This document shows, one piece after another, positions 1-31,141 of a stretch of DNA of 36,472 bases. Source of the stretch: a virus (taxonomy: Duplodnaviria > Heunggongvirae > Uroviricota > Caudoviricetes); IMG/VR virus record IMGVR_UViG_2700989508_000025; one strand, 5' to 3'. The notes under the pieces are model-generated. The model saw only the letters and a program-made list of their open reading frames with translations. It ran no database searches and had not been told where the DNA came from. Numbering within the stretch: position 1 is the stretch's first letter; the number at the start of each line of letters is the position of its first letter. The position numbers and the translations under genes were made by a program.

Positions 1-141
1 TTACTGCTTACACTGTAAGAACGCCGCAAACTCCGCTCCCCAGAAGCTCATCCGTATTTCGCACAGCGAACCGTGCAACATCCAGATGATGAGGATTGCC
101 GTCACGCAGAACGTGATGGCCGTAAGCGATTTTTGCGACAT
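1..141 (-). CDS. Hok/Gef-family-like small membrane toxin (46 aa), candidate type I toxin
   Basis: Minus-strand ORF below the track length cutoff: ATG at 139-141, TAA at 1-3. My translation is MSQKSLTAITFCVTAILIIWMLHGSLCEIRMSFWGAEFAAFLQCKQ: an N-terminal hydrophobic helix followed by C-E-I-R ... E-x-A-A-F, which matches the Hok/Gef pattern as I recall it. Fully overlapped by a longer out-of-frame ORF (8..241), as in mok/hok. Confidence 0.5.
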   Translation of the reverse strand: MSQKSLTAITFCVTAILIIWMLHGSLCEIRMSFWGAEFAAFLQCKQ

Positions 142-331: not shown

Positions 332-592
332 TTAATTTTGAGGTAAGGGCAAACTCATCTGATTGTTTCCTTTGTGTGAAGCTGGCAGTTCATGCCACGG
401 GATACCTTCTGAAGAGTGAGCGCCGGAGGCGTGTTTCGATGTGAATTTATGGAAAGCTTCCAGTGTTGAGAAGCATACGCCGCATTCTAGGTTGTTACAT
501 TGGTAATACTTTTGCCGCACAGTGTTTGAATCATTTTCCGGACGACTAGTGCGGATACGGGCAGATGCGCCACAAAGTGGACAACGGAACAT
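332..592 (-). CDS. ogr: Ogr/Delta-family zinc-finger late gene transcriptional activator
   Basis: 86-aa ORF starting MFRCPLCGASARIRTSR...YYQCNNLEC, i.e. a Cys4 finger (CxxC...CxxxxC) like P2 Ogr. Strong SD (AAGGGAGG) sits just upstream of the ATG at 592. Confidence 0.85.
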   Translation of the reverse strand: MFRCPLCGASARIRTSRPENDSNTVRQKYYQCNNLECGVCFSTLEAFHKFTSKHASGAHSSEGIPWHELPASHKGNNQMSLPLPQN

Positions 593-746
593 AGCGACCT
601 CCCTTACTGTGGTGCTTCCTCTATTCTAAGTTGTACTGATACAGATTCCAATTAACAGCTTGTCTTGTGTGAAAAGTGGAAGTTCACAATTGTGATAGCC
701 ATTACTAACGTTGTGATGTATTAGTCAACGGGAAACAAGGCATCTG

Positions 747-768
747 TAACATATCTATGGATATGTTA
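747..768. promoter_or_regulatory. Perfect 9-bp inverted repeat TAACATATC-N4-GATATGTTA in the ogr/hxsD divergent intergenic region (candidate operator)
   Basis: Read directly: arm 747-755 taacatatc, spacer tatg, arm 760-768 gatatgtta. Lies about 35 bp upstream of the hxsD-like start at 803. Confidence 0.4.
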
Positions 769-802
769 TATTATTGTTGCCATAGGAAAAATCCGCTTTA
801 AA

Positions 803-1117
803 GTGGTTGCTGATCATGAATATTTGTATTGGAAGATAATTGCAATGAGCGAAAGAGTGTTTGAGAAAGAACTATATTCTGAATGGGTTATACGCAATAG
901 TCTATATTGGATGACTCCGCTTACTCGATGGAAACTCCATGAAGACGTTTCCCACTGGATAATCTCTTTTGAAAACGATAATCCCAAATTCCTTTATGAA
1001 TTCGATAGGCTGCTTAATGATTACTCTTTGCGAGAAAAGCTACAGCATAAAACAGGGGCGTTGAGAGACTCTATTGTCCATAAAGTGCTTCGCAGTGTTG
1101 ATGAGAGGCTTTCATAA
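803..1117 (+). CDS. Small protein, first gene of the hxs-like operon (HxsD-like candidate)
   Basis: 104-aa ORF whose TAA stop overlaps the ATG of the next gene (1117). No recognisable motif; the assignment is by operon position only. Confidence 0.4.
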   Translation: MVADHEYLYWKIIAMSERVFEKELYSEWVIRNSLYWMTPLTRWKLHEDVSHWIISFENDNPKFLYEFDRLLNDYSLREKLQHKTGALRDSIVHKVLRSVDERLS

Positions 1118-2505
1118 TGGAATTGATGCCATTTAATTTTGACAGATTGCCTAATGGACAGGTGTTTATAAGCAACCTTGCAGGTTTTCATCATTTCATT
1201 GGTGAGCAAGACCTTATTGATCTTTCTGATGAGCGAATTAGTTCGGAGCAATCAAACGTGCTAGAAAGTAAGCTTTTCATAACCAGTGAAAGCTCATCTG
1301 CTATAACTCCCTATGCTTTAAGTTCTGCTTTTGCAAAACGATTGATGAATGAACTGGCTGTCAGGCCAATTTTCATGATTGTACCCACATTACGTTGTGA
1401 CCATACATGCAAGTATTGCCAGGTTAGTAGAGCTTCTGTTAATGCCTCAGGTTACGACCTAAATCCTGAGCTCATCCCCGATATTATTTCGGCTATTAAA
1501 AAACTATCAACGCCACCTTACAAAATAGAGATACAGGGTGGGGAGCCTCTCTTGCGGTTTGATTTAATTCAGAGCATCTATGATCAATGTGCTGAAACGC
1601 TGGGAAGAACCAATTTTGAGATGGTGGTGGCATCAAGTCTGTCCGTCTTGAATGAGGATATGATTGAATGGTCGAGAGACCGGAACATAACGTTCTCTGT
1701 GTCGCTTGATGGTGAGGAAGTTGTTCACAACAGTAATCGAATTCTTGGTCGTGGGCTTGCGTACAGTAGAACAGTGTCAGGGGTAGAGGCTATCAAACAC
1801 TCTTTAGGTGCTGGCCGCGTTGCAACGGTTACTACAGTTACTAAAGAGCTTATCAAACGTCCTGAATCGATTGTTCAGGCTCACTTGTCTCTTGGTCTCA
1901 AGGACATGTTTATCCGACCTGTTAGTCCCTATGGGTTTGCACAAAAAGCTTCTTTCACCTTTTCTATGGACGAATACTTCAGCTTCTATGCCTCGTTGAT
2001 AGATGAAATCCTTAAGATTAATAATGAAGGGATAAGGGTTGTGGAACATTCGGCCTCCATTCATCTGAAAAGGATCTTCAATCCCGGTTTTAGTGGTTAT
2101 GCGGATTTAAAGTCTCCAAGTGGAGTCGTGCTTAACAGTATTCTTTTCAATTATGACGGTCGAGTATATGGTAGCGATGAGAGCCGTATGTTGCAGAAGG
2201 TGAATCCTGAAACGGAGTTCAGTGCGGGTGAAGTTAAGACGCTATCATTTTCTGATAGTCCTTACTATAACGCAGTATTGAGTTCATCGTTCAATTTTGC
2301 TCTGCCAGGTTGTGATACATGTGCATATCAACCATTTTGTGGTTCAGATCCATGCCAGAACATAAGTGTACAGGGTGAGCCTGTCGGTGATAGGAGTCGT
2401 TCAACGTTTTGTCAATATCACAAGGGGATGTTCAGGTATCTGATGAACTGCATCTCAGAGGGTGGTTCGAAGGCTGAGATGCTAAAAGGATGGGCATATG
2501 TCTGA
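1117..2505 (+). CDS. Radical SAM enzyme with C-terminal SPASM-type Cys cluster (HxsB-like maturase candidate)
   Basis: 462 aa. CxxxCxxC motif in LRCDHTCKYCQ, Gly-rich IQGGEPLL, and a C-terminal Cys-rich segment PGCDTCAYQPFCGSDPCQ typical of SPASM domains. Confidence 0.75.
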   Translation: MELMPFNFDRLPNGQVFISNLAGFHHFIGEQDLIDLSDERISSEQSNVLESKLFITSESSSAITPYALSSAFAKRLMNELAVRPIFMIVPTLRCDHTCKYCQVSRASVNASGYDLNPELIPDIISAIKKLSTPPYKIEIQGGEPLLRFDLIQSIYDQCAETLGRTNFEMVVASSLSVLNEDMIEWSRDRNITFSVSLDGEEVVHNSNRILGRGLAYSRTVSGVEAIKHSLGAGRVATVTTVTKELIKRPESIVQAHLSLGLKDMFIRPVSPYGFAQKASFTFSMDEYFSFYASLIDEILKINNEGIRVVEHSASIHLKRIFNPGFSGYADLKSPSGVVLNSILFNYDGRVYGSDESRMLQKVNPETEFSAGEVKTLSFSDSPYYNAVLSSSFNFALPGCDTCAYQPFCGSDPCQNISVQGEPVGDRSRSTFCQYHKGMFRYLMNCISEGGSKAEMLKGWAYV

Positions 2506-3610
2506 GGTTATCAGGAACGATATCTTTCATTTTGCTTCTACAGAGAACGTGCCCACGGGGTTCTATCGGTTATGCAAACAAAAACCAGTGAACCCTTTAT
2601 TCTTTTTGCCCAATTTGCTAGTAGTTGCTGAAGGCAATAATGATGCCATTCCACCATGCTTTGATTTCTCTGTTATTAGCACTGAATTATTTGAGTCAAT
2701 TGAAGATGGAGATATTGGGATAATCAACAATGGCAATATGATACGCGTTATTCTGTCACGCAAAGCCAATCATAATACTGTCTTAGTTACGGAACGCTGC
2801 AATAACTTGTGTCTGTTTTGTTCGCAGCCACCAAAGAAAATAAATGATGACTGGCTACTTACCCAATCAGCTCTTGCTATAGCTTCATTTGGCTTGAACG
2901 GAGTTGTTGGGGTCAGCGGTGGTGAACCTTTGCTATATGGGGATGACTTCCTTCACTTCATTGATTTTATCATCGAGAATTCACCAGATACTGCTTTACA
3001 TGTTTTAACAAACGGACGCAAATTTGCTGATATCAACTTTACACAGGAAATGGCAAAGCGAAGCAAAAAGATCAAAATCACCTTTGGTATCCCGCTCTAC
3101 TCATCAAGACCACTTGTGCATGATCATCTGGTAGGGAGTGATGGCGCATTTAATGAAACGGTTAAAGGGTTAATCAATGCAGGAAACTTGGGGATTAATA
3201 TCGAACTTAGAGTTATTCCTACACTGGCTAACTATACCGAATTGGATGATATTGTAGAATTCGCTGGCCGTGTGTTCTCCAACATCAATCAGATTTCCCT
3301 TATGGGGTTGGAGCCTATCGGTTGGGCACGAAAAAACTGGTCCACCATCTTCATTGATCACAGTAGTTATAGTGAGAAAATAATCTCTGCCATAGACGCT
3401 GCATACAGGTCAGGCATACCTCTGACAATTTTTAATTATCCTTTGTGTTATCTTCCTGAAAGGGCTAGGGAGCTTGCTGTTCAGTCGATCTCTGATTGGA
3501 AAAATTACTATCCAAAAGAATGTGATGAATGTACTCAGAAGCCTTCCTGTGCTGGCTATTTCAGTTCCTCAAAAGGCCGTTTTCATCAATCACCGAGACC
3601 AATTTTATGA
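2498..3610 (+). CDS. Radical SAM enzyme (HxsC-like maturase candidate)
   Basis: 370 aa. CxxxCxxC in TERCNNLCLFCSQ, Gly-rich VSGGEPLL, and C-terminal Cys residues (CDECTQKPSCAGYF). Overlaps the upstream gene by 8 nt and the downstream gene by ATGA. Confidence 0.75.
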   Translation: MSEVIRNDIFHFASTENVPTGFYRLCKQKPVNPLFFLPNLLVVAEGNNDAIPPCFDFSVISTELFESIEDGDIGIINNGNMIRVILSRKANHNTVLVTERCNNLCLFCSQPPKKINDDWLLTQSALAIASFGLNGVVGVSGGEPLLYGDDFLHFIDFIIENSPDTALHVLTNGRKFADINFTQEMAKRSKKIKITFGIPLYSSRPLVHDHLVGSDGAFNETVKGLINAGNLGINIELRVIPTLANYTELDDIVEFAGRVFSNINQISLMGLEPIGWARKNWSTIFIDHSSYSEKIISAIDAAYRSGIPLTIFNYPLCYLPERARELAVQSISDWKNYYPKECDECTQKPSCAGYFSSSKGRFHQSPRPIL

Positions 3611-4242
3611 AAAAGTTTAATTTTGCTGCTCTACTTCCGGGATTTTTGGCTCTCAACAATTCTGTATGGGCAAGCGATTCATCTACAGGAGCGAGTGATT
3701 TACCTGGTATGACTCTTAATGAGCATGATTTAGTGATAGCTCCACTTAACACGGAAGTCCCATTTTATATCGCAGGGCATCGAAGCCATAGCTCTCATAG
3801 GAGCCATAGCTCTCATAGATCCTCATCAGGTGGTGGATACTATGGTGGAAGTACCCCCTATTATCCAAAAACATACAGCTCACCACGTTCATCTGGTTCT
3901 TCAAGTTCAGGTGCAAGTTCCTCATCGTCCTCTTCCTCGGTGCGTGCACTTCGTTCTAACGATAATAATAGAACCACTAACACGAGTTCTGTTGGAACTT
4001 CAGAGGTTAACCGTACGAGTAATGGGCTTGCTTCTGATGCAGAGAAACGTAAGCGATTGATTATGCGAGTTCAGTTCGCATTGCTGGACAGGGGATTTTA
4101 TAACGGAAATATTGACGGCATAATGGGGCCATCCACAAGGCTGTCTGTGAAAAATTACCGCATTGCGAATGGATTACCGATTCCTGCAACTGAAACACTC
4201 GACACTCAATTGTTAAATTCTTTGAATATATTAGCTCGCTAA
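3607..4242 (+). CDS. Secreted His-Xaa-Ser repeat protein with C-terminal peptidoglycan-binding-like domain (HxsA-like precursor candidate)
   Basis: ATG at 3607 overlaps the hxsC-like stop. N-terminal signal-peptide-like MKKFNFAALLPGFLALNNSVWA. Five consecutive H-x-S triplets (HRSHSSHRSHSSHRS), then a Gly/Tyr and Ser-rich low-complexity stretch. The C-terminus (RVQFALLDRGFYNGNIDGIMGPSTRLSVKNYRIANGLPIPATETLD) resembles the PG_binding_1 fold. Confidence 0.7.
   Translation: MKKFNFAALLPGFLALNNSVWASDSSTGASDLPGMTLNEHDLVIAPLNTEVPFYIAGHRSHSSHRSHSSHRSSSGGGYYGGSTPYYPKTYSSPRSSGSSSSGASSSSSSSSVRALRSNDNNRTTNTSSVGTSEVNRTSNGLASDAEKRKRLIMRVQFALLDRGFYNGNIDGIMGPSTRLSVKNYRIANGLPIPATETLDTQLLNSLNILAR
3784..3819 (+). 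repeat. Tandem 18-bp direct repeat (agccatagctctcatag + g, two copies) encoding the His-Xaa-Ser triplets
   Basis: Read directly from the sequence: 3784-3800 and 3802-3818 are identical 17-mers. Confidence 0.8.
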
Positions 4243-4406
4243 ATCTCAGTGAGGTATAAATAAAAAGCAATAAATTATATTAGTCGCGCGTCCATTATTA
4301 GTGGGTAAGATCAAGGACCGTCTGCTCTGTGTTAGGGGCAGATGGTCAGATAAGACTGTGCCGTTTAGCCCGCTAGTACGTGTCTGGACTAATACATTTA
4401 AGAGTC

Positions 4407-5510
4407 TCATTCTGCTATCCATTCCGGGATTTTTGCCTCAAGCTCAAGCTGCGTGGTAAAGCCGCTGTTATCAATGGTGTGCTCGGCTTTCGCAATAATC
4501 CAGTCCTGATTATCAATCTCGCTTTTAAAGCCTGTTACCGTGCCATGCATTTCGGGGTAGAGTTCTGCGCGTCCACGTGCCAGTGTGATGGAGAACGCTG
4601 CGGCTCCGCGTTGTAGCTGCTGCCACTTTGCCGCCGCTGCGCGTCTTGCTGCCTGCTCGTTCTGATAAGTCTTGCGTAACACAAACACATTGCCTTCCGC
4701 GCCTTCCATATAATCACCTTCACGGCTGCTGCTTTTCTCCTTTTTGGGTTTTGGCGGTTTACGGCGTTTCACGCTGACTTTTTTCTTTTTCCCGTAATTA
4801 AGATCAAGCCAGTAGGCGCGTACCCCCGTATACGCCTCGCGGTCAGCAATACGGAACTGATGGCGATCGCCGCTGCTGCGTGTAATGGCGAACGAGGGCA
4901 ACGGCTGGCCCTGTGCGTTCACGCCACCACCTGGCATGATGAATAACAGATTGCCGCTTTTTACTGTGGTGATTGCGCCCAGCATTTCCGCCATGCGCGT
5001 AAGGAAGGACATGTCGCTTTCTTCGGTCTGGTCGGCGTGGTCGATTTCGATATCCATCAGCATTTCGCTGATTTGCGGTTTCAGACCATACCGATGAGCG
5101 ATGGCGGATACCACACGCTCAACGGTCACATCATGCCAGGACACCTCACGTTTAACGTTAAATTCATCCCGAAAATCTGCGCTTCTGGCTGAAACAGTCA
5201 GCCTGTCCGGCGGTCCTTCGTGAGCGATTTCATCAACAATGTAAGTGCCTTTTTCTGTCAGCGGTTCTCCTTTCCAGCCAATGAGAACCGTCAGGCGCGC
5301 GCCCCGTGGCGGTAGCTGCAACTGACCATCCGCATCATCCAGCGTGATGGTGAGCTGGTCCGCTTCAAATCCCCGGTTGTCGGTCAGTGACAGGCTCATC
5401 AGGCGCTCTGCCACGCCTGACAGCGTTTTACCCTCCGCGAGAATATCAAAATCCGGCATTTTCACGGGGTCTGTGCCCTGACTGAGCAATTGCATGGTGG
5501 TGTCGGTCAT
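4407..5510 (-). CDS. D: Tail protein D (late control gene D family)
   Basis: Track ORF 4407..5642 trimmed to the ATG at 5510 (MTDTTMQLL...), which is preceded by GGGAGGG. Similarity to gpD recognised by eye. Carries a Lys/Pro-rich insert (GKKKKVSVKRRKPPKPKKEK). Confidence 0.8.
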   Translation of the reverse strand: MTDTTMQLLSQGTDPVKMPDFDILAEGKTLSGVAERLMSLSLTDNRGFEADQLTITLDDADGQLQLPPRGARLTVLIGWKGEPLTEKGTYIVDEIAHEGPPDRLTVSARSADFRDEFNVKREVSWHDVTVERVVSAIAHRYGLKPQISEMLMDIEIDHADQTEESDMSFLTRMAEMLGAITTVKSGNLLFIMPGGGVNAQGQPLPSFAITRSSGDRHQFRIADREAYTGVRAYWLDLNYGKKKKVSVKRRKPPKPKKEKSSSREGDYMEGAEGNVFVLRKTYQNEQAARRAAAAKWQQLQRGAAAFSITLARGRAELYPEMHGTVTGFKSEIDNQDWIIAKAEHTIDNSGFTTQLELEAKIPEWIAE

Positions 5511-25935: not shown

Positions 25936-26358
25936 CGCGCTTCGCTTGTCTGCTGCTTCGCCGGGGCATAAAAAATTTATGCCCCGACTCTCCAGCTCCT
26001 GTATCAGTCAGATAATTTCACGACGCCTTCCAGTTTATCGCCACCATCGACGGTCAGACTCTTACGCAATCCCACCGCGTTGACTGTATGTTCTCGCCGC
26101 CTCAGTGCGATTTTGACGGCCTTACCTTTCACCCCATCAAATCAAAAGCCCTCACGCCTTTTTCACGCTCAGCGTGAGAAATACAGCCATTCTGTTGTGT
26201 CGCTGCGACATCGTTCAGGGAATGCTATTTACCCCCTGAAACGCGGGCTGTTCCCCCGTCACCTGCGCGCAGAAAAAGCGCGTTTTTTTGTGCACGCACG
26301 GATCCTTGACGGATCCAGCCGCAACGCGGGCCGGAAGGGCAAAAAGTCGTTCAAAAAA

Positions 26359-26419: not shown

Positions 26420-26611
26420 TTATCTTTTATAGCCTTGCCCCTTCCTGGCCAGCGTCCTGATGGCCGGGCGTGCCAACATCATATTTTGGCAATGATGAAT
26501 TGCCCGGCAAAATTCATCTCTACCCATTGGATGCTCAACTGGCAATGTTAAATACAGGTTCCATGCGTCGCCTAAAAGTTGGGCTATCTTTTGTTCTTCA
26601 GATGTCAGCAA
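26420..26611 (-). CDS. Hypothetical small protein (63 aa), TTG start; weak call
   Basis: Track ORF overlapping the end of the 72-aa ORF. Non-ATG start and no clear SD. Confidence 0.2.
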   Translation of the reverse strand: MLTSEEQKIAQLLGDAWNLYLTLPVEHPMGRDEFCRAIHHCQNMMLARPAIRTLARKGQGYKR

Positions 26612-26823
26612 GCGGTATCCGTAAAATAATCATACTTTTCATGTATGTTATTTAACGGTTTTGTCTGTAGTGCAGCCTGAGCTATACGGTATGCCTGAAG
26701 CATACGGGCGTCGTTGATATCCATTCCGAACGGAATTTCTGATGATTGTGACTCTGCATCTTCAAGCCTGGCAATTTCTTTACGTAAGAAGTATTTCAAC
26801 TCTTGTTTCTGTTTTCTGTTCAT
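26605..26823 (-). CDS. Hypothetical small basic protein (72 aa)
   Basis: ATG at 26823 preceded by AAAGGAAAA about 8 nt upstream; charged, helical-looking sequence. No family recognised. Confidence 0.4.
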   Translation of the reverse strand: MNRKQKQELKYFLRKEIARLEDAESQSSEIPFGMDINDARMLQAYRIAQAALQTKPLNNIHEKYDYFTDTAC

Positions 26824-26921
26824 GCTTTTTTTCCTTTTTCTCTGTCAATGTGTTGCATTTTGTCCCCCTTGTTTATGTTCCCGGATTAAAGTCATCAGGG
26901 CGGATGCGCCCTGATGTTGTG

Positions 26922-27233
26922 TTATTCGGGAAATAATGCCCGGATATTTCCGGCCATCTGACTGGTTATCTGTGCGGTTGATACTGGCTGTGACGCGGGG
27001 CATTCTGTCCTGGTTTGTGTCACTGATAACGCCTCATCGTCAGCCCATGCAGCCAGTCGGTAAGCCTCTGCTGGATTCATTTTCAGAAGTGCCAGCCCGG
27101 CCAGAAAAGCCACGCGTTGGCCGCTTTTGCGGGCTTCTGGTGTAAGGCTGTCCAGCCAGGCGCATGCTTCGCTTTCGTTCTTGACGGCCGCAGGCTTCAG
27201 ATAGAAACTTATCCGTCTGGTTGGTGTCGTCAT
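26922..27233 (-). CDS. parR: ParR-like centromere-binding adaptor (plasmid partition / StbB-like)
   Basis: Track ORF trimmed to MTTPTRRISFYLKPAAVKNESEACAWLDSL...AFLAGLALLK, which resembles the N-terminal ribbon-helix-helix region of R1 ParR (RRTIAFKLNP...ALTAGLALYR) from memory. Lies immediately downstream of parM. Confidence 0.6.
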   Translation of the reverse strand: MTTPTRRISFYLKPAAVKNESEACAWLDSLTPEARKSGQRVAFLAGLALLKMNPAEAYRLAAWADDEALSVTQTRTECPASQPVSTAQITSQMAGNIRALFPE

Positions 27234-27237
27234 TGGT

Positions 27238-28197
27238 TTACTCCTTGTCCATTGCGTACAGCCCATTAACCAGAGCAAACTGTGGCACCCCGTCCGCGAT
27301 GAAAGTCGCATTAACTCCGCAGGCTTCGCGGATAGCGGGTGCCACAATCTCCGCCCCTCCACCGACAACCATCACCCGCCCGTAACCCGAAAAAACCGCC
27401 AGCGCGCGGATCACGCGTTGTTTCAGTGTTTCTTCCTTTTCACGAATAACCGCCATCAGGCTGGCGTAATGCGCGTCATTGTGGATGTGCTGGCGCAGCC
27501 AGGCTTCATCATGGCGATGTTCGATAATGGTATTGGCGATGTGGTGACTGGTGCGCATACCGTTAGTGGCCATCACCGCCAGTACGGCATCGGCCATCAG
27601 AGAAACGCCTACGTGTGGATCGCAAAACACCTGGCTGATACCTGCCAGGTGCCCCTGAACCTTTGCCACATCCAGCGTGGTTCCGCCCAAATCCACAATC
27701 AGCAGGGATTCAAACGGACTCATGTCAGCCAGTGCCTTAAAGCCAGCCGGAATGGATTCAGGCATAACCCGCACGTTACGGATAGTGAATGCTTCGCCGT
27801 TCTGGTACTCCACCGGGCGCATAACGTTCGCTTTTTTGCGGTTGATGTTGGCCATGTCCGGCTGTGCGTTTGTGTCGAAATACTCGCTCAGTGGCAGGGT
27901 GACAACCACATCCACCTCCTGTGGTGTGATGCCTGATTTGACCAGCGCGTGATGAATGGCAATGACATTCACATCGCTGTATTGGTATTGCGTGTCGGTC
28001 GTCTGGACAAAGCGATCGCTGACCGGATCAAAACCATAGCGCACGCCATCAAGCATGTAGTTCGCGGGCTGCGTGCCACCGAACGGCGCAGACCATTCCG
28101 ACTTGAAGCTGTTCGGGCTGATGGCGTTGCGGCGTTCGCCGTTCTCAGTCCATGCCAGCTTGATGTTGGTGGAGCCGTCGTCGATACAAATTTTCAT
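27238..28197 (-). CDS. parM: ParM/StbA-family actin-like segregation ATPase
   Basis: 319 aa. Strong resemblance to R1 ParM throughout (MKICIDDGSTNIKLAW, SDVNVIAIHHAL, VMPESIPAG, DLGGTTLD, VVGGGAE). SD AAGGAAAAG sits upstream of the ATG at 28197. Confidence 0.85.
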   Translation of the reverse strand: MKICIDDGSTNIKLAWTENGERRNAISPNSFKSEWSAPFGGTQPANYMLDGVRYGFDPVSDRFVQTTDTQYQYSDVNVIAIHHALVKSGITPQEVDVVVTLPLSEYFDTNAQPDMANINRKKANVMRPVEYQNGEAFTIRNVRVMPESIPAGFKALADMSPFESLLIVDLGGTTLDVAKVQGHLAGISQVFCDPHVGVSLMADAVLAVMATNGMRTSHHIANTIIEHRHDEAWLRQHIHNDAHYASLMAVIREKEETLKQRVIRALAVFSGYGRVMVVGGGAEIVAPAIREACGVNATFIADGVPQFALVNGLYAMDKE

Positions 28198-28228
28198 GTC
28201 GCTTTTCCTTATGTTGATTAATTAATCG

Positions 28229-28338
28229 TTTACGGGATTCTGAAATCCCGTTTTTGCCTGTTTTGTGCGCGCTTCATATATCGCTGCGCGTTTTTTGCTC
28301 ATTTACGGGATTCGTGAGTCCCGTTTCTGTCTGTTTTT
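28229..28338. repeat. Two copies of a ~37-bp direct repeat, each containing a hairpin followed by a T-rich tract, upstream of parM and overlapping the 3' end of gene A
   Basis: Read directly: copy 1 at 28229-28264 (tttacgggattctgaaatcccgtttttgcctgtttt), copy 2 at 28302-28338 (tttacgggattcgtgagtcccgtttctgtctgtttttt), 73 bp apart. Confidence 0.7.
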
Positions 28339-31141
28339 TGTTTCCACTGGTCAGGCCACCCCGCAGCAGGTCTGCTTTGCGGCTGGCGCGTTCAGTGGTT
28401 TCACTGATTCTCTGTGCGTGCTCTGCGTCGCGGATGGCGCGCAGCATGTCAGAAAGCACGGTAACGGGTGTTTTCATGGTGTTCTGGTCCTGCTGAAGTG
28501 TGGATGCCAGGCGTGCGGCGGCTTCAGGGTCTGATGCCCCCAGCTGTGTCAGATAGCTGGCGACCGGGTTATGGCGGATCTCCGTGCTGCTTACGCCATG
28601 ATTACGGCTCAGGCGCTGCCAGAGCTGCGTGATTCGGCTGTCCGGGCGGGTATCCGGTTTGCGTACAATTTCAAATCCCTGCGGTGCAATGATGCTGCCG
28701 TCAACGTACAGACTGCCGCCCCGTAACAGGTGCTGCATCTGTTGTTCACCGATATGCAGGCCGAGAGATTCAGCAGACTCCCGCCATTCTTTAGCGAGTA
28801 ATTCGTGGTTATCAGGCAAAGGCCGCTGCTGTTTGCGGCTCTGTGTCCAGCTCTGCATTTCATCACTGCTGTTTTTTGCCTGTTTGTCACGAAGCGAACG
28901 CATCAGCGCCCGGCGTTCGTGCCGTTTCAGTGAGCGCATCCATTCATCCACATCAACGCCGTCAGGGAGCTGCGGCCACGGTGCTGGCCGTTCTTCCGGC
29001 TGTTTTGTCCCGTTGTTGTCCGTTTCCTGTACACGGGGACAGTTATTGCCACGAGTCCAAGGGGCGGCAGGGCCGCCCTGAAGGTCAAAACCATTTTCGC
29101 GGGAGCTGTCTTCCGCTTCCGGTTTGCGTCTTACCAGCTTCCAGTTATCCGGATGCGTGCATACGCGGGAAGACTCCCCGATGAGCGGCGACCAGATCCC
29201 GTAAATCTGTACACTCTGCTCACCGTAATCGTTCAGCTCATTTGCGAGGTCGTAGGCGGTGCGAATCAGGTAGTCCTTGCGTGGAACAAGCACGCCACCC
29301 TGTTTTTCAATGTAGGTGGCAAAACACCCGGCATCGGCGGCAGCGAGTACCGCATCCATTGCATCATCTTTCAGCCGTTGCGGGCCTTCCGGATTGCGTG
29401 CCATCTGGCTGGCAAGGCGGCGCAGTTCACGCCACACCTGACGGGAGGGGATGCCAAAGAACTGGAACTGACGGACCCGGTGAAGGCGCGCCCAGCCGAT
29501 GGCGCGCTCCACGCTCTCGGCCATTGATTTTCCGGTTTCGTGGTCAACGCGTGGCTTGCCCGTTTTCGGGTCGATGCCATCCACGGCGCGGCTGTCCAGG
29601 TTCTTTCCGATGTAGGTGGCGATGTAGCTGGTTGGTGTGCCTTTTGAGCCGTCGACATACTCCGCCTTAAAACGCGGAGTTATGTCATCGCCCAGCTCGT
29701 GGCGGTCCTCCTGAATGGCAATATCGCAGACGTGGGACACGATGGTTTCAATCTCGTCCGGATGTGCAAAGACCATCATATGCCAGTGCACAGTGCCGTC
29801 ATGGTGAGGCTCCACCGTGCGGATGCCATACCAGCGCAGGCCGTCGCGGTTCAGTTTTTTGCGGACCGCCGCAAAAAACGTGTTAACCAGGTAATCGCTG
29901 GAGTCGCGCATGGTGGCCCCGTTCCATTTGGGGTTCGGATGACCGTTCTCCGTTGTTGCGTGGTATTTTGACGGGCAGGTGACGGTCAGAAACACCGCTC
30001 TGTCGCCACGGGCTTCGGCCAGAAGTTCCAGTCCCTTCATGGTGGCCATCATTTCTGCCTTACGGTGAACCGGGTTACTTACTCCCGCGTAATACACCGT
30101 CTCGAGATCAATCGTGAATCCGTCTTCATTTTCCAGCATGAAACTTTTCAGGAAATCGCGTGTTTTCTCGCGCTGTGCGCGAAACTCGCTTAACGCGTCC
30201 TGGCTCAGATAGGGGGATGTTTTTCTGGAAACCAGACAGGCGGCGCGGAGTTGTTCTTCCCGCCACTCACAACGTAACAGCCACAGTTTGCGTTTCCACC
30301 ATTCCGCACAGGTCAGGCGAAGGATTGCGCCCGGCAGCAGCTCCGTGTCCGGTTCGTTCCTCCGGTCTTTGTCTGTTGTCAGTGCGTCATAATGTGGAGG
30401 CATGGCGTGCAGGTGTAACGCCATGCGGGCCAGCATCTGATACGCCTTCAGCGTTACATCCATGGTCAGCTCGCCATCAGTCGCGCCAAAGCCATCGCAG
30501 AGTTTTTCGAAGGTGCTGCTGAACATCGCCGCTGTCATGGTGGCCAGCGTCTGTATCTGGTGTTTGTTGAGCTGCGGCAGGTAAAGCAAATCATCCAGGC
30601 GTTCGCGTCCGGCAAGGGAGCGATAACCCGGTGTCAGCCAGCGGTGGTCGGTGCGGTCCAGACGTTCGAATATTTTGCGCAGGGTTCCGCACGCGTAGCG
30701 TTCAGCCTGCCAGCTCTTTTTGCCTTTCTGGCGATCGGCTTCCTGTTTTTTGCGCAGGAAAGAGAGGTGGCGGCTCAGAGGTTCACGCAGATAAACGGGA
30801 AGCACCTTCAGTGTGGCAAAAGCACGGGCCACCGAGTCTTGTTCTGTTGCCTGACGCTTGCTGATGATGCTTTGTGCCAGCTTTTCACGCTGTCCGGCTT
30901 CCTCAAGGGATGCCATGAGTTTTTTACCCACGGTGGATTGTGCGAAAAAGGCTTCCTCCTTCGCTTCCTGTTCTTCCAGAGCCTTTTTGTCTGCCTCAAG
31001 GTAGTAACGGATGGCGCGTTGCAGGTCGGTTTCAGTTTCCTGCCTGTGCTCCGTAAATCTGGCCGGATCAATGGCTGGCCGTGGTTCATTCCAGCTCCAT
31101 GTAAACTCATTCATGGCTGGTATCCCGTCACGCGCTGCCAC
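28274..31141 (-). CDS. A: Replication initiation endonuclease A (rolling-circle, HUH family)
   Basis: 955 aa. HUH motif in VEPHHDGTVHWHMMVF and active-site Tyr motif TSYIATYIGKN, as in P2 gpA. Alternative start at ATG 31114 (MNEFTWSW), coupled to the upstream ORF's stop. Longer than P2 A (about 760 aa). Confidence 0.85.
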   Translation of the reverse strand: MAARDGIPAMNEFTWSWNEPRPAIDPARFTEHRQETETDLQRAIRYYLEADKKALEEQEAKEEAFFAQSTVGKKLMASLEEAGQREKLAQSIISKRQATEQDSVARAFATLKVLPVYLREPLSRHLSFLRKKQEADRQKGKKSWQAERYACGTLRKIFERLDRTDHRWLTPGYRSLAGRERLDDLLYLPQLNKHQIQTLATMTAAMFSSTFEKLCDGFGATDGELTMDVTLKAYQMLARMALHLHAMPPHYDALTTDKDRRNEPDTELLPGAILRLTCAEWWKRKLWLLRCEWREEQLRAACLVSRKTSPYLSQDALSEFRAQREKTRDFLKSFMLENEDGFTIDLETVYYAGVSNPVHRKAEMMATMKGLELLAEARGDRAVFLTVTCPSKYHATTENGHPNPKWNGATMRDSSDYLVNTFFAAVRKKLNRDGLRWYGIRTVEPHHDGTVHWHMMVFAHPDEIETIVSHVCDIAIQEDRHELGDDITPRFKAEYVDGSKGTPTSYIATYIGKNLDSRAVDGIDPKTGKPRVDHETGKSMAESVERAIGWARLHRVRQFQFFGIPSRQVWRELRRLASQMARNPEGPQRLKDDAMDAVLAAADAGCFATYIEKQGGVLVPRKDYLIRTAYDLANELNDYGEQSVQIYGIWSPLIGESSRVCTHPDNWKLVRRKPEAEDSSRENGFDLQGGPAAPWTRGNNCPRVQETDNNGTKQPEERPAPWPQLPDGVDVDEWMRSLKRHERRALMRSLRDKQAKNSSDEMQSWTQSRKQQRPLPDNHELLAKEWRESAESLGLHIGEQQMQHLLRGGSLYVDGSIIAPQGFEIVRKPDTRPDSRITQLWQRLSRNHGVSSTEIRHNPVASYLTQLGASDPEAAARLASTLQQDQNTMKTPVTVLSDMLRAIRDAEHAQRISETTERASRKADLLRGGLTSGNKKQTETGLTNPVNEQKTRSDI

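Follow-up and report, generated by a model that had tools for sequence, protein, structure and literature searches.

Why would a phage that integrates into the chromosome of its host carry a motor for segregating plasmids? The puzzle is posed by a 36,472-nucleotide stretch of viral DNA (IMG/VR record IMGVR_UViG_2700989508_000025; hereafter the window, meaning the whole stretch that was analysed), a P88-like prophage of the P2 family in which a homologue of the plasmid gene parM and a parR gene follow the replication gene A, with two direct repeats just ahead of parM. Judged by their sequences, the repeats and the two genes appear to form a complete, functional-looking type II (ParMRC, actin-type) partition system of parC-like sites, parM and parR. 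The answer that we favour, by analogy with the srpMRC locus of the SXT/R391 integrative and conjugative elements (ICEs), is that the cassette would segregate extrachromosomal, replicating circles of the phage, a proposition that we regard as evenly balanced. The parts of the cassette are the following:

26922..27233, minus strand: parR, by family an adaptor and centromere-binding protein of 103 amino acids (Pfam Plasmid_stab_B, 1.7e-24; PHROG 'partition protein', 1.5e-57).
27238..28197, minus strand: parM, an actin-fold segregation ATPase of 319 amino acids (Pfam StbA_N, 1.8e-82; ParM C-terminal domain, 3e-68).
28198..28225, minus strand: leader with the ribosome-binding site AAGGAA and a conserved AT-rich box, TTAATTAATCAA.
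28226..28267, no strand assigned: proximal 42-nucleotide repeat with the palindrome ACGGGATTCTGAAATCCCGT at 28232-28251; candidate parC half and ParR operator.
28299..28340, no strand assigned: distal 42-nucleotide repeat with the palindrome ACGGGATTCGTGAGTCCCGT at 28305-28324, in the 3′-terminal part of gene A; the other candidate half of parC.

Both Pfam domain matches of ParM lie far above the cut-offs, and its best match in the PDB is ParM of plasmid R1 (1mwk; E 2.8e-92, 46% identity over 317 columns, residues 2-316), with crystal and cryo-EM structures both included among the R1 ParM matches. The nucleotide-binding motifs align residue for residue with those of R1 ParM (phosphate 1 DDGST, catalytic PES, phosphate 2 DLGGTT and adenosine GGGA), and the motifs for nucleotide binding and hydrolysis are invariant in 13 ParMs of the phage clade described below. 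The IMG/VR sample comprises 78 loci whose ParMs are 98-100% identical, and the gene is full length (319 amino acids) in every one of them. The ratio of nonsynonymous to synonymous substitution rates (dN/dS) of parM is 0.04-0.17 in five of six pairwise comparisons; the sixth, with the circular record L009 introduced below, gives 0.45, a value based on only 5 substitutions. PHROGs labels both ParM and ParR as 'partition protein'. A first-pass annotation, made from the letters of the window, had proposed a parM homologue with strong ParM/StbA motifs followed by a ParR-like gene, and the hidden Markov model matches listed above, together with the R1 ParM match, bear out both halves of that proposal.

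parR starts four bases after parM on the same, minus strand. A profile built from 40 phage ParRs has as its best PDB relative the ParR of pB171 (2JD3) at E 0.0045, and the same structure is reached at E 2.7e-13 when plasmid ParRs are added to the profile. Residues 1-14 (MTTPTRRISFYLKP) are invariant in all 77 IMG/VR sequences and sit where the DNA-reading strand of a ribbon-helix-helix protein would be expected, while at the other end the tail NI(R/Q)xLFPE is conserved, its N, I, F and P being the same in all 40 aligned sequences, as would be expected of a ParM-binding helix. Variation is clustered between these ends, in residues 66-95, a hypervariable linker that is predicted to be disordered; fixed ends joined by a variable linker are the pattern expected of a working adaptor. 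An AlphaFold model of the monomer, poor overall with a predicted local distance difference test score (pLDDT) of 58, has an unstructured N-terminus, helices at 20-61, disorder at 62-85 and a C-terminal helix at 86-100, a layout that fits the ParR architecture.

The extent of this variation is considerable, with 39 distinct sequences among the 77 IMG/VR copies, and in a wider protein search the identity of ParR falls to about 42-56% while ParM keeps 91-99%. Even alleles that share just 56% of their residues retain both the N-terminal strand and the C-terminal tail, next to ParMs that are 99% identical. The linker falls into at least three allele families, and some alleles, as read off the alignment, look mosaic between the two main families, which suggests recombination. 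The hypervariability may reflect relaxed constraint or diversifying selection, for example for avoiding cross-talk between co-resident prophages. The gene is intact in 76 of the 78 loci and its pairwise dN/dS is about 0-0.4, so that parM and parR alike are under purifying selection. No linkage was seen between the allele class of ParR and the loop variants of the palindromes upstream.

Those palindromes are the candidate centromere. The two direct repeats are 81% identical and lie 73 base pairs (bp) apart, and each contains a 20-bp palindrome of the form ACGGGAYT-N4-RRTCCCGT that is confined to the two repeats within the 36.5-kb window (0.09 occurrences expected by chance; none of 100 shuffles reached the count). 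The first-pass annotation had described hairpin-containing direct repeats just upstream of parM, where a parC-type centromere would be expected; the two repeats stand, but their intergenic location does not hold for the distal one, which lies inside the last codons of gene A (stop codon end at 28274, minus strand). The hairpin, too, is present in E. coli but is not the conserved feature. What is kept across genera is the pair of half-sites YGGG-N10-CCCR, in two copies 72-73 bp apart, which is found in E. coli, Salmonella, Hafnia and Plesiomonas with starts at -53/-126 relative to the parM ATG in E. coli and Salmonella, -56/-129 in Hafnia and -60/-132 in Plesiomonas. This geometry is maintained despite ParMs that are only 62% identical, inner ten bases that differ and surrounding DNA that cannot be aligned, and in each of these genera the distal site lies within the upstream coding region.

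The same comparison bears on a quite different explanation, in which the repeats are tandem plus-strand intrinsic terminators that shield gene A from antisense transcription and parMR is a remnant with no role. Both E. coli palindromes do resemble terminators on the plus strand, where an 8-bp stem runs into a T-rich tail. The equivalent sites of Plesiomonas and Hafnia, however, keep only the outer YGGG and CCCR around a 10-nucleotide non-complementary centre, form no good hairpin and are not terminator-like on either strand, and natural variants of the palindrome differ in the loop and in some cases lose stem pairs with no compensating change. Stronger plus-strand terminators are already present upstream, at 26265 and 26893, and the purifying selection on parM and parR speaks against a remnant. 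We consider this explanation scarcely credible, and a terminator function of the repeats was rejected on the strength of the equivalent Plesiomonas and Hafnia sites. The uncompensated stem breaks and the sites that form no hairpin indicate instead that the conserved feature is a pair of inverted half-sites at a fixed spacing, which is what would be expected for binding by ribbon-helix-helix dimers rather than for a hairpin or terminator.

The phages of Serratia and Enterobacter are arranged otherwise, with inverted arms of 14-20 nucleotides separated by 26-28 nucleotides, and in the N-terminal strand of their ParRs NRK replaces TRR; the change of site and the change of strand agree, if weakly, with co-variation of ParR and its site. 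Over the 115 bp of the region, A-tracts recur with a phase near 10.5 bp, which is only suggestive of extra weak sites or of curvature. Per-site variability in 76 upstream regions did not clearly set the palindromes apart from their flanks, because the whole upstream region is very similar among them. In the plasmid loci that were compared (R1-type, IncF, IncL/M and an Edwardsiella plasmid), the repeats are arrays of 10-11-bp iterons in two blocks that are likewise offset by about 72-73 bp.

How the cassette is bounded and expressed can be read from its surroundings, where four further features are needed:

28274..31114/31141, minus strand: replication gene A, a rolling-circle initiator (Pfam Phage_GPA, 1.5e-129; RefSeq 'replication endonuclease').
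28274..28389, minus strand: the ~38 codons at the end of gene A, carried along with the cassette.
26893..26916, no strand assigned: GC-rich hairpin with a 10-bp stem just past the parR stop; terminator-like site.
26420..26823, minus strand: two small open reading frames (ORFs) of 72 and 63 amino acids between parR and cos/portal (PHROG 660 and 13916).

When P88-type phages with and without parMR are aligned, homology breaks at about 28362-28390, and the exchanged unit thus includes both repeats and the last ~38 codons of A. At the other end, homology to other P88-like phages stops in many records at about 26896-26919, and the hairpin there is the probable downstream end of the cassette. Gene A lies immediately upstream of parM in the same orientation. 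Scans of the E. coli, Plesiomonas and Hafnia loci found no consensus sigma-70 promoter upstream of parM, and no sense-strand terminator between parM and gene A (or whichever gene precedes parM). Between the proximal site and the ribosome-binding site lies the AT-rich box ATTAATCAA, which is common to the E. coli, Hafnia and Plesiomonas loci and nearly invariant across 76 IMG/VR copies, and which is not a consensus sigma-70 promoter. Since A is co-oriented with parM and abuts it, with neither promoter nor terminator between them, the cassette is probably expressed with the early replication operon; the simplest reading is that parMR is read through from that operon, possibly with modulation by ParR at the proximal site. 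ParM and ParR would then be made while the phage DNA is extrachromosomal and replicating, and not in a quiescent lysogen.

Expression of this kind would also suit a role in lytic growth. In P2-family phages monomeric circles serve for both replication and packaging, a plasmid-like substrate that ParM and ParR might position or disperse to make either process efficient. Lying last in the early replication operon, with no terminator ahead of it, the cassette would be made along with A during lytic growth as well, and its near-core standing in the lineage fits such a role. As a case in point, the prophage CGP3 of Corynebacterium glutamicum likewise encodes an actin-like ATPase and an adaptor, AlpC and AlpA: the two are co-transcribed and expressed early after induction, AlpA, which binds its own upstream region, connects the circular phage DNA with the filaments, and efficient replication of the phage requires the two of them (Donovan et al. 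2015, PMC4446434). The role established there is efficient replication and not a demonstrated segregation. AlpC also belongs to a different actin-like family, in another host phylum and another type of phage; the phage proteins studied here are of the canonical R1 type (46% identity to R1 ParM), and the only AlpC-like signal in ParM is a match to ALP_N at 1.4e-5, below the Pfam cut-off. Relatives without the cassette look otherwise complete, and P2, 186 and others do without it. A lytic role, the main rival to segregation, is rather unlikely in our estimation.

The element that carries the cassette is chromosomal. The whole window is 100% identical to part of the chromosome of E. coli 03_3013 (NZ_CP074958.1, 2469718-2506189), where a complete P2-like prophage is inserted between ihfA and btuC, and over the cassette the window is 97.9% identical to phage P88. 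P2-type gene A and the portal, terminase, capsid and tail genes stand in P2 order, the RefSeq annotation gives the whole P2-like set, and the window is thus a P88-like (Xuanwuvirus) prophage of the P2 family and is not plasmid-borne. P88 itself is mitomycin-inducible and integrates into the chromosome (PMC5285337). The prophage ends in a Hok/Gef toxin gene on the left (window 1-141) and a tyrosine integrase on the right, and the gene order is A, parM, parR, two small ORFs, a presumed cos and the portal gene, which places the cassette between gene A and the portal gene, at the position of tin and old in P2. The first-pass annotation had placed a ParM/ParR cassette at the tin/old site of an integrase-bearing P2-like phage, and each part lies where it had said. 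It had also left room for an element that resides on a plasmid; the chromosomal source between ihfA and btuC removes that option for the window, and 1478 of the 1480 places found in complete E. coli genomes are chromosomal as well.

A milder version of the plasmid idea is that the phage is maintained over the long term as a low-copy plasmid instead of integrating, for example when the attachment site is missing. It was put forward by Rousset et al. (2022, PMC9122126), and one record speaks for it, L009 (NZ_CP148288.1, 1-34461): this circle of 34,461 bp, closed at attP and entered as a 'plasmid' of an E. coli isolate from a cat, is a whole P88-like genome. The hok-family addiction gene of the prophage would also suit a plasmid. 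Yet L009 is heavily frameshifted, with breaks in the sheath, tape-measure and portal genes that could be long-read sequencing errors or real decay, and the record may represent excised or induced phage DNA, or else a fault of assembly. The predominance of chromosomal places weighs against plasmid lysogeny, as do the remaining plasmid records, which are either a fragment captured by IS26 in an IncC plasmid or implausibly large 'plasmids', and the integrase is kept in all members examined. Moreover, maintenance as a plasmid requires controlled, theta-type replication under repression, whereas gene A, going by what is generally known of P2, is a rolling-circle initiator in a repressed early operon. 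We regard long-term plasmid lysogeny as improbable.

The PLSDB plasmid records are instructive in their own right. Among true plasmids the ParM closest to that of the phage reaches only 52% identity, and none of them matched the parC region. ParMs at 95% identity or more occur in a handful of records: a Salmonella plasmid with a phage A-parM-parR block, an IS26-captured prophage fragment in an IncC plasmid, the L009 circle and the implausibly large 'plasmids'. The IncC plasmid, pC-Ec2-KPC (NZ_MK439959.1, L107), is conjugative and KPC-bearing, and its rearranged, IS26-bounded fragment of an ST131-type P88-like prophage contains A, parM and parR; the phage partition cassette can thus reach resistance plasmids.

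The nearest relatives of the cassette are found in other phages. In a search of 5.8 billion proteins, the next ParMs, at 54-62% identity, come from Hafnia, Plesiomonas, Serratia and Enterobacter, and the four that were looked up all lie in a P2-like prophage, with gene A upstream and a Plasmid_stab_B gene next in line; one gene separates A from parM in Hafnia and two in Enterobacter. ParMs at 49-53% identity are in an integrated plasmid, an ICE or plasmid-like contigs, and all eight ParMs outside the phage clade whose context was checked are in plasmids, an ICE or non-phage contexts. A neighbour-joining tree sets the phage ParMs as a clade beside the IncF- and IncL/M-type ParMs; bootstrap support is 200/200 for Escherichia-Hafnia-Plesiomonas, 200/200 for Serratia-Enterobacter and 130/200 for the two together. 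What fits best is that P2-like phages acquired the cassette once or twice, long ago, and have since inherited it over a long period. A recent origin from a known plasmid was ruled out by plasmid ParMs of at most 52% identity, the lack of a plasmid parC and the same-place ParMs in four genera, and the suggestion of the first-pass annotation that the element had captured a stability module fails when taken as a recent event.

Within E. coli the cassette is common. It is present in 1330 of 5426 complete genomes, at 1478 chromosomal and 2 plasmid places (1480 in total), and in 14 phage records; a query of parR, parM and A together gave 1223 genomes with a place covering at least 80%. Roughly one complete E. 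coli genome in four therefore has the prophage that bears it, strains of O157:H7, O26 and ST131 among them. P88-type gene A at 90% identity or more occurs in roughly 1390 genomes and the cassette in about 1330, figures by which it looks like a near-core part of P88-like phages and not like random hotspot cargo. The slot of truly variable cargo in these phages is the next one, occupied in the window by the two small ORFs (26420..26823), for which Pfam gave no match and PHROG only families 660 and 13916; in other P88-like phages it holds DUF4760, Phd/Doc, HicAB or a KAP NTPase instead, and cargo beyond parR in cassette-bearing phages is frequently on the opposite strand. In two relatives the slot directly after gene A is without parMR: in L008 (STEC379), 395-3765 holds an AAA ATPase and an S8 peptidase, and in L006 (HD12481), 1387-3914 holds three unannotated genes. 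These replacement genes are probably defence cargo.

The gpA-gpQ interval is indeed a documented hotspot of anti-phage systems (PMC9122126), and the cassette itself might be imagined to serve competition or defence, either by excluding other elements through partition incompatibility or by interfering with incoming DNA. A defence system was rejected when PADLOC gave no match at E ≤0.1 for ParM, ParR or the two small downstream ORFs, and incompatibility has no obvious target, given that no true PLSDB plasmid has this parC and the nearest plasmid ParM is at 52%. The cassette adjoins gene A, with the variable cargo beyond parR, and its inheritance alongside P2-like phages in several genera contrasts with the rapid exchange that is typical of defence cargo. 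We hold such a role to be very improbable.

Comparison with known systems helps to place the cassette. It shares with R1 parMRC (parA/stb, and the related IncF and IncL/M loci) the order (candidate) centromere, parM, parR; a ParM that is 46% identical over its full length with all nucleotide-binding motifs; a ParR of the StbB/ParR Pfam family in which the N-terminal strand, helices and C-terminal tail are conserved; and upstream repeats in two blocks about 72-73 bp apart. The differences are equally clear. The R1 locus is on a plasmid, and carriage by a low-copy plasmid is a mark of type II systems, whereas the host element here integrates and is a chromosomal prophage between ihfA and btuC. 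The candidate centromere consists of two 20-bp palindromes (YGGG-N10-CCCR) in place of two blocks of 10-11-bp direct iterons, is without a consensus promoter and has its distal site inside the coding region of the upstream gene. The phage ParR has 103 amino acids against 117-147 in plasmids, and the phage ParMs form a lineage apart from all plasmid ParMs of PLSDB (at most 52% identity).

The closest functional parallel is srpMRC. This locus of the SXT/R391 ICEs reduces loss of the excised circle, which replicates by the rolling-circle mode, and acts alongside a toxin-antitoxin system (Carraro et al. 2015, PMC4489591). Like the phage cassette, srpMRC is a type II partition locus in a normally integrated element with a tyrosine recombinase, has a toxin-based addiction partner (hipAB in SXT/R391, hok in the phage) and is conserved across its element family. 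It acts on a transient, excised circle undergoing rolling-circle replication, and by analogy the phage cassette would do the same. The proteins themselves differ, in that the phage has a canonical ParM and ParR while SrpM and SrpR are only distant relatives of the R1 pair. The setting differs too, srpMRC being part of the int operon under SetCD control, whereas the phage cassette comes after the replication gene. For srpMRC the function is a demonstrated one; for the phage cassette it is a proposed one.

It is thus possible to set out how segregation of extrachromosomal phage circles would proceed. The cassette would be expressed with the early replication operon, either after infection and before integration or after excision, and its substrate would be the extrachromosomal, replicating, monomeric phage circle. 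ParR dimers would bind the two YGGG-N10-CCCR sites, 73 bp apart upstream of parM, through the N-terminal ribbon-helix-helix strand; the conserved C-terminal helix of ParR would capture the ends of ATP-ParM filaments; and a growing filament would push two copies of the phage DNA apart. Distribution of circles to both daughters would raise the yield of lysogens after infection, or would prevent loss after an abortive excision, and the cassette would have no role while the prophage sits in the chromosome. The window prophage has its integrase, and one circular P88-like record exists, the L009 circle of doubtful quality. The pairing of a partition locus with an addiction gene is that of R1 and R391, and the presence of a hok gene beside parMRC in the same prophage is circumstantial support for an srpMRC-like role. 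The identity, conservation and genomic context of the parts are matters of observation, while co-transcription of parMR with A, binding of ParR to the sites and the biological role are what we infer from them.

Several points weigh against segregation of phage circles. A single circle that is not replicating cannot be partitioned, and any benefit would need replication before the lysogeny decision or after excision. With 1478 of 1480 places chromosomal, a plasmid-like phase, if there is one, must be brief or infrequent. Some P88-type relatives can dispense with the cassette: it is replaced by the three hypothetical genes of L006 and by the AAA ATPase and S8 peptidase of L008, and in L007 a Phd/Doc module has truncated parM. 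Where R1 has ten iterons, the candidate parC offers only two clear sites, and the binding of ParR to palindromic sites is a deduction from their arrangement. Finally, a Foldseek search of the poor ParR model (pLDDT 58) against the PDB returned nothing below E 5, and the family membership of ParR consequently rests on sequence profiles. A wider formulation, which we offer tentatively and somewhat against the balance of probability, is that ParMRC is an old, lineage-specific, near-core component at the end of the replication operon that carries out real actin-driven segregation (in a carrier phase or in an AlpAC-like organisation of the lytic cycle), with a new palindromic type of centromere and a ParR linker under diversifying pressure.

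If segregation of phage circles were the true role, P2-family phages would have an actively partitioned extrachromosomal phase, and the border between prophages, phage-plasmids and ICEs would be further blurred. The cassette would also be a compact and naturally diverse ParMRC for the study of centromere recognition, with two palindromes, a short ParR and dozens of linker alleles.

It is important to stress that the system had been seen before. RefSeq names the two genes 'plasmid segregation protein ParM' and 'plasmid partitioning/stability family protein', and a survey of the gpA-gpQ interval (Rousset et al. 2022, PMC9122126) reported a putative plasmid partitioning system in about a quarter of E. 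coli P2-like prophages and remarked, in one sentence only, that it might permit maintenance as a plasmid. Judged by locus and frequency, this appears to be the cassette of the window, with the same place between gpA and gpQ, the same share of prophages and the same suggested role. In a paper on Citrobacter rodentium PhiSM (PMC6456863) the gene is listed as a 'fitness' factor, and no functional study of the phage parMR cassette was found in the literature. The word 'unexpected', used of it in the first-pass annotation, was thus overstated; that observation and its main interpretation were already in the record and amount to a correct re-discovery, not a novel one. The survey came without analysis of centromere, selection, phylogeny or operon context, which the present work covers. 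New here are the conserved geometry of the candidate centromere, unlike R1 iterons; the purifying selection on parM and parR; the same-place ParMs in P2-like prophages of four other genera; and the movement of the distal repeat and the last ~38 codons of gene A with the cassette, together with the finding of no promoter or terminator separating A from parM.

Some further observations concern the prophage and its relatives. The Hok/Gef-family toxin gene (window 1-141, minus strand; Pfam 4.1e-7, above the cut-off) adjoins ogr at the prophage edge, and the prophage therefore has a homologue of each of the two classical stability loci of R1, parMRC and hok. In a 226-kb contig that bears the label Vagococcus sp., a Firmicute (NZ_JBQPOM010000071.1, L003), there is a P88-like cassette 97% identical to that of E. 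coli, and the label is probably the result of assembly contamination or mislabelling. Between ogr and tail gene D the window has a 3.8-kb insertion (634-4409) that was found neither in the L009 phage circle nor in any of 50,697 phage records. Its plus-strand ORFs (803-1117, 1117-2505, 2498-3610 and 3529-4242) encode a His-Xaa-Ser system, HxsD/HxsB/HxsC/HxsA by their RefSeq names, with two radical-SAM maturases and a repeat protein; PADLOC gave weak viperin-like matches only, and the insertion appears to mark a second cargo slot of the prophage.

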